Assembly: GCA_047617785.1 (NCBI GenBank)
Contig: JBLGBK010000003.1
Coordinates: 1-64,000 of the forward strand
Direction: 5' to 3'
Length of the DNA: 64,000 nt
Origin: Colwellia polaris
GTDB lineage: Archaea > Nanohalarchaeota > Nanosalinia > Nanosalinales > Nanosalinaceae
In this document: positions 5,326-41,379 of the stretch, piece after piece
Numbering within the stretch: the first letter of the stretch is position 1
How the letters are laid out: the number at the start of each line of letters is the position of its first letter
Notes under the pieces: model-generated
Databases searched by the model: none
Seen by the model: only the letters and a program-made list of their open reading frames with translations
What the model was told of the DNA's origin: nothing
Program-made: the position numbers and the translations under genes

Positions 5326-5739
5326 GTGATGAACGGTTTTGATGAAGAGGAAATGAGTTCGGCTGTAGAGGAGATGGTTGAAGATATCACCGAAACAGAA
5401 AATAATACTAGAAAAAACCCTCGAAAAGAGGTTATAGAGAACTCAAAGGAAGAACAGGATGTCGGAAGTAAGATACCACGAAGCTGGGATCCTGTAGAAC
5501 TGGACTTCCTTATCAACAACCGTACAAGCCTTGGAAACAAAGAGCTGGAAGACTTCCTTCAGGAAGACTCTGAAGTTCATGAGAAAATGGAGAAGCTCAG
5601 CAACTTCTCAAACACAGAAAAACGATTCCTAATGGAGCACGCACAGGCAATGAATATAGAACAACTTGCAGAAAGACTTGACAGGGAAGAAGAGGTAGTA
5701 CAGCTCAAACTTGAATCTCTAGGACTTTACGGTGTATAG
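5326..5739 (+). CDS. Hypothetical acidic protein with Myb/SANT-like HTH repeats
   Basis: WDPVELDFLINN...ELEDFL and FSNTEKRFLMEH...IEQLAERLDREEEVVQLKLESLGL resemble Myb-like repeats; start could be the ATG at 5329. Confidence 0.6.
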   Translation: MMNGFDEEEMSSAVEEMVEDITETENNTRKNPRKEVIENSKEEQDVGSKIPRSWDPVELDFLINNRTSLGNKELEDFLQEDSEVHEKMEKLSNFSNTEKRFLMEHAQAMNIEQLAERLDREEEVVQLKLESLGLYGV

Positions 5740-5743
5740 AAAA

Positions 5744-6496
5744 ATGGTTAAAGAGATAAGAGATCAAGCAATACAAGAAGCCAAAGAAGAGCTAAGAAAA
5801 GATGTTCCAAGAGACAAGGTAGTTGTCAGGGCAGTCAAATACCTGGAAAAGGTTTCAAGCGATCTGGACGAAGAAATTCAGGTCTTCCGCGACTGGTACG
5901 GCATACATTTCCCAGAATTCGTCGAACAGATACAGGATAACGATCATTTTCTCAAACTGCTTTCAAACGGTCTGGAAAGAACAGATGTTAACGGTTTTGA
6001 AAGCCTGGCAAAAGAATCGACCGGCTCAATGCTTGTAGACGAAGATCTCGAAGCACTTGAAGTAGCATTTGAAGACCTCAAGGACAAGTACCAGATGAGA
6101 GAGGAACTGGAAAGTTATATTGAAGAAGTAGTTGAAGATGAGATGGGTAATCTGACTGCGTTCATGGAGCCAATGCTTGTCGCAAAACTATTGGCTCACG
6201 CGGGCAGCCTTGAAACACTGGCAAAGAAGCCGGCATCAACTGTACAGATGTATGGAGCTGAAAAAGCACTTTTCCGCTATCTCAAGGGGGAAGGCACACC
6301 GCCAAAGCATGGTGTAATATATGAGCACCGATTCGTAAACAGCCTTCCGGAAGAAAAAAGAGGTAAAATGTCGCGATTTATGGCTAACAAGATCTCCATA
6401 GCCGCAAGACTTGATTACTATGGAGGCGACTTCAAAGGCGATGAACTGAGAGAAGAAATTACAGGAAAATATCATTCACTGGAGGAAGATAACTGA
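5744..6496 (+). CDS. nop5: Box C/D sRNP protein Nop5 (Nop56/58)
   Basis: RDWYGIHFPE, PASTVQMYGAEKALF, PPKHGVIY and RGKMSR...IAARLD; start moved to the ATG at 5744 after the upstream stop. Confidence 0.95.
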   Translation: MVKEIRDQAIQEAKEELRKDVPRDKVVVRAVKYLEKVSSDLDEEIQVFRDWYGIHFPEFVEQIQDNDHFLKLLSNGLERTDVNGFESLAKESTGSMLVDEDLEALEVAFEDLKDKYQMREELESYIEEVVEDEMGNLTAFMEPMLVAKLLAHAGSLETLAKKPASTVQMYGAEKALFRYLKGEGTPPKHGVIYEHRFVNSLPEEKRGKMSRFMANKISIAARLDYYGGDFKGDELREEITGKYHSLEEDN

Positions 6497-7146
6497 TGGA
6501 AGAAATACAAACAGGAATATACGAACAAAACGATACTATATATACCTTAAACGCAAATCCGGGAGAAAACGTTTACGGCGAACCTTTGATAGATGTAAAT
6601 CATGAAGAGTATCGTAAATGGGAGCCAAAACGCTCCAAAGCAGGAGCGGCAGTAAAAAAAGGCGTAGAACTCGGCCTCGATCGAGATGATATCGTTCTGT
6701 ACTTGGGAGCTGCTTCAGGTACAACAGTATCGCATTTCGCAGATATCGTTATGGAGGGCCTAGTTGTTGGGGTAGAGTACTCTGATACAGTAGCACGGAA
6801 GCTTGTACGACTGGCTGAAAAGAGAGAGAACATTGCGCCAGTACTTGGAGATGCCAGAAATCCAGAAGGCTACGAACACTTAATTGAGGAAGCTGATGTA
6901 GTTTTCCAGGATATATCCCAACGAGATCAACCAGAAATATTCTTGAAGAATGTAGAGAAGTACCTGAAGGATGATGGTGTGGCATTACTAGCTGTTAAAG
7001 CCAAGTCGATTTCCGACTCTCGCGATCCAGAGGATATCTACTCTGAAGTTAAAGAGAAGTTGACTGAAAAACTGGAGATTATCGAGGAAACCACTTTGGA
7101 CCCTTATGAGACAGACCATCTTTTCCTGAAGATGAAGTTAAACTGA
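6496..7146 (+). CDS. flpA: Fibrillarin-like rRNA/tRNA 2'-O-methyltransferase
   Basis: VYGE, VLYLGAASGTTVSH, NIAPVLGDARNP and DISQRDQ; TGATG coupling with nop5. Confidence 0.97.
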   Translation: MEEIQTGIYEQNDTIYTLNANPGENVYGEPLIDVNHEEYRKWEPKRSKAGAAVKKGVELGLDRDDIVLYLGAASGTTVSHFADIVMEGLVVGVEYSDTVARKLVRLAEKRENIAPVLGDARNPEGYEHLIEEADVVFQDISQRDQPEIFLKNVEKYLKDDGVALLAVKAKSISDSRDPEDIYSEVKEKLTEKLEIIEETTLDPYETDHLFLKMKLN

Positions 7147-21591: not shown

Positions 21592-21969
21592 TTACTCCTC
21601 TTCTTCTGCTTCTAGCAGTTCTTCTGCTTTTGCGCTGATTTCTTCTATTTCGTCTTCTGCGTTACCTGAGTCTGTTACAGCGATTGCTGCGGACTGTACG
21701 TTGATTCCTGCTGCTAGTCCGAGTTCTTCTTTGTCAGGTACGAATGTGAAGCTGATGTCTCGTTCTTCTGCTAGGCTTGGGATGTGCATTACGATTTCTT
21801 CTGGGGAGACATCTCCAGCTACTATTACTAGGTCTGCATCGTTTCGTTCGATGCTTTTGGTTACTTCGTTAGTACCGATTACGACTTTTCCTGTGTCGCG
21901 TGCTTTTTCGATTGCGTTGTAGGTTTTCTCTGCTAATGAGTCCGTTGGTTCGAATTTTTGATATACCAT
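21592..21969 (-). CDS. rpl7ae: 50S ribosomal protein L7Ae (K-turn binding)
   Basis: GTNEVTKSIER, DVSPEEIVMHIP and ELGLAAGI. Confidence 0.98.
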   Translation of the reverse strand: MVYQKFEPTDSLAEKTYNAIEKARDTGKVVIGTNEVTKSIERNDADLVIVAGDVSPEEIVMHIPSLAEERDISFTFVPDKEELGLAAGINVQSAAIAVTDSGNAEDEIEEISAKAEELLEAEEEE

Positions 21970-41130: not shown

Positions 41131-41205
41131 GGGTTCGTGGTCTAGCTTGGTTATGACACCTCCTTGACGTGGAGGAGATCCCCAGTTCAAATCTGGGCGA
41201 ACCCA
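41131..41205 (+). tRNA. tRNA-Val(GAC)
   Basis: GGGTTCG...CGAACCC acceptor stem, CCTCC-TTGACGT-GGAGG anticodon arm, CCCAG-TTCAAAT-CTGGG T arm. Confidence 0.96.
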
Positions 41206-41215
41206 CTACGCATTT

Positions 41216-41379
41216 GGGAAAGTAGCTCAGGGGTTAGAGCGCTGCGCTCATAACAACTTTTATGAGCGATGAGGGAGCAGGCGATTTCTGGATAGCCGGC
41301 TTTCCGATGATTAAAAACTCTTCCAGAATCATGTTTGTGAGAAACGCAGAGGTCCCGGGTTCGATTCCCGGCTTTCCCA
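41216..41379 (+). tRNA. tRNA-Met(CAT), elongator-type, with 91-nt intron (41253-41343) at position 37/38
   Basis: GGGAAAG/CTTTCCC acceptor stem, CTGCG/CGCAG anticodon stem, BHB motif (CTCA/TGAG central helix, bulges TA|A and AA|A); Ile2(CAT) identity not formally excluded. Confidence 0.9.

Follow-up and report, generated by a model that had tools for sequence, protein, structure and literature searches.

Two of the closest described systems are the box C/D guide carried by the pre-tRNA-Trp intron, reportedly described by Clouet-d'Orval 2001 and Singh 2004, and haloarchaeal sR-tMet, which Joardar 2011 is said to have described. The tRNA-Trp intron constitutes a complete sRNA that carries all four boxes (C, D', C' and D) and addresses both C34 and U39. 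According to the available parts of three articles, it guides modification from the intron of euryarchaeal pre-tRNA-Trp in Haloferax volcanii and as sR50 in Pyrococcus (PMC7994747, PMC4090602, PMC4033218), and in one of these, a review, it is still called a unique case (PMC4090602). The Cm34 of archaeal elongator tRNA-Met is likewise known and is C/D-guided in haloarchaea, where the guide, sR-tMet, is reported to come from a separate gene and to act in trans on the intron-containing precursor (PMC4033218, PMC6601510). Human SNORD97 and SCARNA97, in the available text of Vitali and Kiss (2019, PMC6601510), also guide Cm34 of elongator tRNA-Met; they are eukaryotic, free-standing, two-box snoRNAs. 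In Nanoarchaeum equitans, the 66-nt intron of elongator tRNA-Met gives rise to a stable, abundant RNA, presented in the accessible sections of the report as a potential C/D sRNA (Randau 2012, PMC3491384).

The window, the 64,000-nt stretch of DNA analysed here, contains an elongator tRNA-Met gene with an intron organized as follows.

41131-41206, plus strand: tRNA-Val(GAC), 9 nt upstream of tRNA-Met
41216-41379, plus strand: elongator tRNA-Met(CAU) gene (Rfam RF00005, 56.5 bits; ARAGORN -i)
41216-41252, plus strand: 5' exon, ending at A37 (41252) (sequence reading)
41245-41253, plus strand: putative target, comprising anticodon-arm positions C30-A37 and the first base of the intron, CGCTCATAA, with C34 at 41249 (sequence reading)
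41253-41343, plus strand: intron, 91 nt, between tRNA positions 37 and 38 (sequence reading; ARAGORN with introns allowed)
41260-41268, plus strand: antisense guide UUAUGAGCG, in which G41264 pairs with C34 (shuffles and comparison)
41269-41272, plus strand: D'-type box AUGA, forming 4n, U3n, G2n and A1n of a kink-turn (comparison of 115 unique introns)
41273-41305, plus strand: C-stem hairpin of the kink-turn, flush with the D' box (folding; stem register over 115 introns)
41286-41292, plus strand: loop strand UUCUGGA of a loop-to-tail pairing (complementarity in 13/44 introns of the phylum)
41306-41312, plus strand: C'-type box, consisting of the bulge GAU (L1-L3) and GAUU, with AUGAUU at 41307-41312 (comparison of 115 introns)
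41322-41328, plus strand: tail strand UCCAGAA, partner of 41286-41292 (complementarity in 13/44 introns of the phylum)
41335-41344, plus strand: 3' side of the bulge-helix-bulge (BHB) splice motif, with the bulge A41342, A41343 / A41344 (sequence reading; fold constraint)
41344-41379, plus strand: 3' exon, starting at A38 (41344) (sequence reading)

As read from these elements, the intron is probably a reduced box C'/D'-type methylation guide with a single kink-turn, directed at C34 of its own host tRNA. It is a conserved relative of the N. equitans intron RNA and is not new in kind; the initial annotation had suspected that an intron-borne version might already be reported for Nanoarchaeum, and the homologue is indeed described there (Randau 2012, PMC3491384, available sections). 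The two RNAs share the elongator tRNA-Met host, the intron position and the succession of elements (guide, D-type CUGA box, GC hairpin, GAUGA box), while the window's intron differs in its AUGA and AUGAUUA boxes, where the 4n/4b pair is changed together, in its longer hairpin, its loop-to-tail pairing and its length of 91 nt. The element that the accessible sections of the N. equitans report call 'box C with T to G at position 30' (GGGAUGA) is read here as a C' box and, in contrast with the reading proposed for the window, those sections speak of a 'potential' guide and name no target (PMC3491384). As in the tRNA-Trp system, a 37/38 intron would guide Cm34 of its own tRNA, and guide pairing and splice motif are alternative folds; the window's intron, however, has one kink-turn and one guide and resides in a different tRNA. 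With sR-tMet it would share the target, C34 of elongator tRNA-Met, and the enzyme system, whereas its guide lies inside the intron; this placement also separates it from the free-standing human RNAs. A literature search returned no description of the C34 self-target, the single kink-turn or the wide distribution, and Joardar 2011 and Clouet-d'Orval 2001, which lay outside that search, may bear on the point. A look-up of sequencing runs for the locus listed 24, all of them DNA.

By its sequence features, the gene at 41216-41379 is that of an elongator tRNA-Met. The Rfam tRNA model aligns to this interval on the plus strand with a long insert 3' of the anticodon, and ARAGORN calls tRNA-Met(cat) with a 91-nt intron only with introns allowed, the default run having missed the gene. 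An Rfam search of the intron with E values up to 10 returned no family besides tRNA. The tRNA presents G1-C72. The only other CAU tRNA of the genome (C1:8740-8814) displays A1-U72 and an anticodon stem with three G-C pairs, and is thus assigned as the initiator. A CAU-type tRNA-Ile2 is unlikely because the genome contains a tRNA-Ile(UAU) with a 51-nt intron and because TiaS (PF08489) was not found in it, while 4/4 archaeal control genomes matched. Initiator and elongator tRNAs carry an identical G31-A38 sequence. As tRNA-Val(GAC) lies only 9 nt upstream on the same strand, the two genes are probably transcribed together.

The segment TTATGAGCG (41260-41268) matches the reverse complement of CGCTCATAA (41245-41253) at every position and lies 6 nt away from it. 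It is followed directly by ATGA (41269-41272), and the fifth base upstream of this box, G41264, pairs with C34 (41249). Sequence, Rfam and ARAGORN -i therefore agree with the initial annotation that a 91-nt tRNA-Met intron contains an exact 9-nt complement of the anticodon arm and then ATGA. When the intron was shuffled 200,000 times, 0.13% of the shuffled sequences contained a complement of at least 9 nt to the anticodon arm, and 0.24% a guide of at least 5 bp placed for C34 with NUGA. The guide 9-mer matches four times in the window against 0.40 expected, two of the four being the guide/target pair itself. The shuffle odds alone are only suggestive, and it is the comparison with other genomes that carries the weight.

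With the 164-nt gene as query, 33 of the 41 related genomes searched gave a match. Both exons were recovered at 22 loci (the window and 21 relatives), and every one of these presents the guide, one base and NUGA at equal spacing, in introns of 65-262 nt that otherwise have very little in common; their common elements are U(A/G)UGAG-N-N-NUGA-G, then a hairpin whose sequence varies, then (N)AUGAU(U/C). The module is also displayed by L014 and by L016, which is truncated. Aligned across the phylum, as the initial annotation had proposed, the tRNA-Met introns thus keep guide, one base and NUGA in 24/24 precursors, and its reading of ATGA as a D or D' box with the fifth upstream base opposite C34 is upheld by a spacing that is the same in all of them. 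This N+5 spacing was not imposed by the search, since the 24 precursors were found through their exons. A scan of the Nanohaloarchaeota with the module pattern gave one match each in 47 of 70 genomes, against 1 match for the reversed-pattern control. The pattern was absent from the other 23, which include that of L027, whose spacer is longer than the pattern allows, and two in which the gene is cut at a contig end (G005 with L016, G024 with L017); L016 retains the guide and both boxes, and only the last intron bases remain in L017. In G008, a single contig, neither BLAST nor the pattern revealed a module, only chance matches, and its elongator tRNA-Met was found neither by exon similarity or pattern nor among 28 Rfam tRNA matches (7 long ones inspected); two congeners have the gene.

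Outside the phylum, the distribution was assessed by one scan of 185,579 species genomes with a pattern comprising the D-stem, anticodon loop, guide core and NUGA, which returned at least 121 loci. After removal of three mis-parsed rows (L093, L115 and L168), 84/100 archaeal-titled and 0/21 bacterial loci among the matches listed were intron-bearing tRNA(CAU) genes with the module. Among these listed matches, grouped by record title and given as parsed/loci, they comprise Micrarchaeota (29/35), Hadarchaeota (9/9), Aenigmatarchaeota (6/7), Marsarchaeota-titled records (4/4), Woesearchaeota (2/4), Nanoarchaeota (3/6, including N. equitans Kin4-M with its 66-nt intron, L131), Nanohaloarchaeota (7/8), Methanosarcinales-titled MAGs (4/4) and archaea without a group name in the title (20/22). 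Many of these introns are only 36-47 nt long and comprise little more than guide, D' box, a very small hairpin or loop, C' box and splice strand. The conserved guide core is U(A/G)UGAG, and duplexes extend over 6-12 bp (8-9 bp in the window), with G(N+5) pairing with C34 in all.

The base next to the box is usually unpaired in C/D guides. The guide bases opposite tRNA positions 30 and 31 were left free in the search pattern. Of the 115 unique sequences, 113 show position 31 paired with the guide (A-U 59, G-C 50, U-A 2, G.U 2), and only 35 show pairing of position 30, which adjoins the box. A formal count used 65 aligned sequences, namely the window and 64 of 90 short-hairpin ones, with 26 rows dropped by hand beforehand (mostly near-identical Micrarchaeota, and four with long 5' spacers). 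In this set 89.4% of cells are paired against 73.8% in shuffles, and the covariation score is 0.342 against 0.120 shuffled (0/500 reach it) and no more than 0.08 with slid partners, figures that overstate independence as the aligned sequences are related. The column pair formed by position 31 and the guide contains AU 36 times, GC 25, UA 2 and other combinations 2, and column pair 12/28, in which the guide meets intron bases 1-2, is paired in 46/62 cells. In the absence of pairing, three pair types distributed over several phyla are difficult to account for.

The guide is followed by the elements of a kink-turn, whose second box, the C'-type partner, was absent from the initial annotation. The window's sequence presents a flush C-stem of 5 bp (G41273-C41305, G41274-C41304, G41275.U41303, A41276-U41302, G41277.U41301), a 3-nt bulge (N-A-U), tandem G.A/A.G pairs and a U opposite a U. 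G41309 and A41310 form sheared pairs with A41272 and G41271, respectively, U41311 lies opposite U41270, and U41312 pairs with A41269. Beyond the C-stem, the hairpin contains an inner GGC/GCC stem and an apical loop carrying UUCUGGA. When the 115 unique introns were anchored on both boxes and the best candidate was picked separately for each bulge size, a flush stem of at least 3 bp with a 3-nt bulge occurred in 93/115, other bulge sizes in 34/115 at most; control values were 6.7 on average after interval shuffling and 0-2 with scrambled box motifs. NUGA is present in 115/115, as the search pattern required, in the forms AUGA (67), CUGA (34), UUGA (13) and GUGA (1). In the second box, AU precedes GA in 104/115, L1 is G in 73, A in 21 and U in 20, and U occupies 3b in 78. 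At the first position of 'GAUGA', 41/115 sequences have A or U instead of G, so the conserved core is AUGA, and the sheared pairs fall on the second GA. At 4n/4b, 44 introns have A-U, 15 C-G and 9 U-A, and in 13 C stands opposite C, an arrangement seen in families f2-f4; the formal count of 65 sequences gave 69.8% paired cells with 22 double changes for 4n/4b and 96.3% paired cells with two-sided changes in all 4 pairs for the C-stem. The earlier caveat that the boxes are noncanonical stands in part: the window has AUGA (as does its family) and no RUGAUGA, but families f2-f4 carry the canonical CUGA and a C'-type partner exists.

A terminal box C/D kink-turn was not detected, as the sequence 5' of the guide lacks a conserved RUGAUGA and that 3' of C' lacks a conserved CUGA at guide distance. 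The minimal introns, at 36-47 nt, leave no room for a second kink-turn. In the window, the 5' part of the intron contains no RUGAUGA, and the 3' GUGAGAA, considered as box C of a circular intron, was rejected because it reads GUGGG in several relatives, or AAGAG. CUGG (41288) and CAGA (41324) were likewise discarded as D' and D boxes, as they belong to the two strands of the loop-to-tail pairing and are exchanged in L005. Loop-to-tail complementarity of at least 7 nt is present in 13/44 introns of the phylum, all of family f1, and is longer in L007 and L009; it likely constitutes a lineage-specific pseudoknot.

In the BHB motif, the 4-bp central helix is formed by C32-A35 with UGAG (41338-41341) and is flanked by the 3-nt bulges UA/A and AA/A; a short helix of UUG (41335-41337) with C41254-A41256 closes the intron. 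All 4 pairs of the central helix are present in 68 of 115 sequences and 3/4 in 42. The guide hairpin and the BHB are mutually exclusive, since both use C32-A35. The minimum-free-energy fold of the precursor holds the 9-bp guide hairpin, at -55.7 kcal/mol, against -49.9 kcal/mol with the anticodon stem and splice helix forced, and the guide fold is the more stable in 109/115 segments comprising anticodon arm and intron, with a median difference of -3.7 kcal/mol; these energies are nearest-neighbour estimates that take in neither proteins nor tertiary contacts. In these energy models, free and constrained, the 9-bp hairpin does exclude the BHB motif, as had been proposed.

A module of the same type occurs outside the window but in the same genome, in the 72-nt intron of tRNA-Lys(UUU) (contig C6, 47817-47963, plus strand). 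It comprises the guide GUUAAAAGC, one base, CUGA, the hairpin GCCACG/CGUGGC and then GAU-GA, and U34 is paired with the base at the fifth position upstream of the box. A congener (L190) and members of families f4 (L191) and f5 (L192) carry the module in their tRNA-Lys introns as well. Across the phylum, the tRNA-Lys pattern was no more frequent than its reversed control, and inspection of 7 candidates gave 3 real tRNA-Lys introns and 4 chance matches. A strict search of the genome for canonical C/D sRNAs found none, and loose kink-turn scans of the genome gave no excess over controls (25 vs 34; 47 vs 37), with the tRNA-Met and tRNA-Lys introns alone standing out by context.

Three protein genes of the window encode components of the C/D methylation machinery.

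5732-6496, plus strand: Nop5 (aNOP56), 254 aa, coiled-coil and C-terminal domain only (Pfam Nop, 3.8e-48)
6496-7146, plus strand: fibrillarin 2'-O-methyltransferase (Pfam 2.1e-70; NCBIfam NF003276, 261 bits, above cut-off)
21592-21969, minus strand: L7Ae, kink-turn binding protein (NCBIfam TIGR03677, 140.3 bits, cut-off 134.6)

The Pfam and NCBIfam matches confirm that Nop5, fibrillarin and L7Ae are all encoded here, as initially noted, with the qualification that Nop5 is devoid of its N-terminal domain. Its ORF covers positions 116-375 of the 417 in the NCBIfam NF011121 profile and aligns with residues 121-374 of S. solfataricus Nop5 (3ID5_A). In solved complexes the N-terminal domain of Nop5 binds fibrillarin. 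A search detected no such domain elsewhere in the genome; in the PF08156 search, the archaeal controls themselves barely matched. Immediately upstream, an ORF at 5326-5739 (plus strand) overlaps the Nop5 start by 8 nt and encodes an acidic, all-helical product of 137 aa; it is a separate conserved ORF in 15/21 genomes searched, the window's own included. Its candidacy for the missing N-terminal domain was rejected, as it has no Pfam, NCBIfam or PDB sequence match. Its predicted structure consists of helices throughout (mean pLDDT 67) and matched no known fold at E values up to 0.001, and complex prediction with fibrillarin scored 0.00, which gives no answer.

If the intron acts in cis as proposed, the guide UUAUGAGCG would pair, once the anticodon loop is transcribed, with C30/G31-A37 and intron base 1, and the AUGA and AUGAUU boxes, joined by the hairpin 41273-41305, would form a kink-turn to which L7Ae could bind. 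Nop5 and fibrillarin would assemble on the L7Ae-bound kink-turn, and fibrillarin would methylate the 2'-OH of C34, the base opposite the fifth guide position upstream of the D' box. The RNA would subsequently refold into the bulge-helix-bulge form, and only then would the endonuclease remove the intron. Since C32-A35 are required by guide duplex and splice motif alike, methylation would come before splicing. As G31-A38 is identical in the two tRNAs, a guide acting in trans could not tell initiator from elongator, whereas one residing in the elongator precursor presumably can.

Several features count against a C34 guide of this kind. Half guides work poorly in vitro, and the intron has one kink-turn where canonical archaeal guides have two. 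The Nop5 ORF is without the fibrillarin-binding domain, the D' box is AUGA instead of CUGA in the window's family, families f2-f4 place C opposite C at 4n/4b, the duplex is short and the pattern is missing in 23/70 genomes of the phylum. The single kink-turn and the shortened Nop5 would also fit an intron that directs no methylation, in which the kink-turn recruits L7Ae and the antisense masks the anticodon loop, as a chaperone or as a timer that delays splicing or other anticodon-loop modifications; the predicted stability of the guide hairpin over the splice motif with which it competes (median -3.7 kcal/mol) points the same way. Masking alone, however, would not fix the distance between duplex and box, and the N+5 spacing is invariant in the 24 independently found precursors. 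The base beside the box is left unpaired as in true guides, and fibrillarin is retained next to Nop5 in a genome of 0.79 Mb, such that masking without methylation appears quite unlikely. Chance complementarity, or a sequence that is merely part of the splice motif, might be invoked because formation of the BHB requires any 37/38 intron to pair with the anticodon loop, but the BHB partner is another stretch (UGAG, 41338-41341), and the frequency in shuffles, together with a module conserved across phyla with covariation, makes this explanation hardly credible.

The same guide RNP might instead operate in trans, with the excised linear or circular intron, or one precursor, guiding Cm34 on other tRNA-Met precursors. 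Two reviews describe action in trans for the guide in the tRNA-Trp intron (PMC7994747, PMC4090602), and the H. salinarum tRNA-Met intron is circularised, as given in the accessible text of PMC12558985. The frequent pairing of the guide with intron bases 1-2 likewise fits a precursor as substrate. In contrast, a free guide would not discriminate against the initiator tRNA, which offers the identical G31-A38 target, and the guide lies 6 nt from its own target, with the cis hairpin as predicted ground state in 109/115 precursors; action in trans is accordingly a possibility that we consider the less likely one. Another interpretation takes the first box as box C of an ordinary sRNA with two kink-turns that would act on other targets, for instance rRNA. 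The window's letters GCGAUGA are one change from RUGAUGA, and the initial annotation had allowed that CGATGA could be read as box C. This fails in the relatives, where the base preceding AUGA varies between G, A, U and C and families f2-f4 have CUGA; moreover, no conserved D or D' box lies downstream at guide distance, and CUGG and CAGA are swapping strands of a pairing. A box C at this position is very improbable.

Under the favoured interpretation of a cis guide for C34, the tRNA gene would carry the instruction for its own wobble modification, and loss of the intron would mean loss of Cm34. This would explain why a long tRNA-Met intron is kept in very small genomes, from the Nanohaloarchaeota to Micrarchaeota, Hadarchaeota and N. 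equitans. Competition between the guide fold and the splice fold provides a testable model for modification before splicing, and the 36-47-nt versions would be the smallest natural substrate for a possible L7Ae/Nop5/fibrillarin particle and a clean test of one kink-turn. Tentatively, a wider class may be envisaged, of minimal intron-borne one-kink-turn cis guides that act co-transcriptionally on several tRNAs (Met, Lys(UUU)) to 'methylate wobble ribose, then splice', served by a reduced RNP whose Nop5 is without the fibrillarin-binding domain. The architecture of such an RNP would be unlike the two-kink-turn archaeal C/D particle.

Only 32 tRNA genes of the genome were identified by ARAGORN and by Rfam. 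Beyond this set no anticodon of the Trp, Tyr, His, Asn or Asp type was found, which points to gaps in the assembly or to genes that are split, permuted or interrupted by several introns. In 10/44 introns of the phylum, the D'-C' hairpin contains an insertion with the motif UU(C/U)-GA-GAAGA...UCUUC-GA (tRNA-Met introns L009, L012, L019, L020, L030, L033, L036 and L040-L042); it is also observed in the tRNA-Lys intron L191. From its sequence, this insertion may represent a second kink-turn on a three-way junction and a second L7Ae site. In L031 (family f5), tRNA-Met contains, besides the guide-bearing intron, a second intron of 15 nt inside the 5' strand of the anticodon stem.
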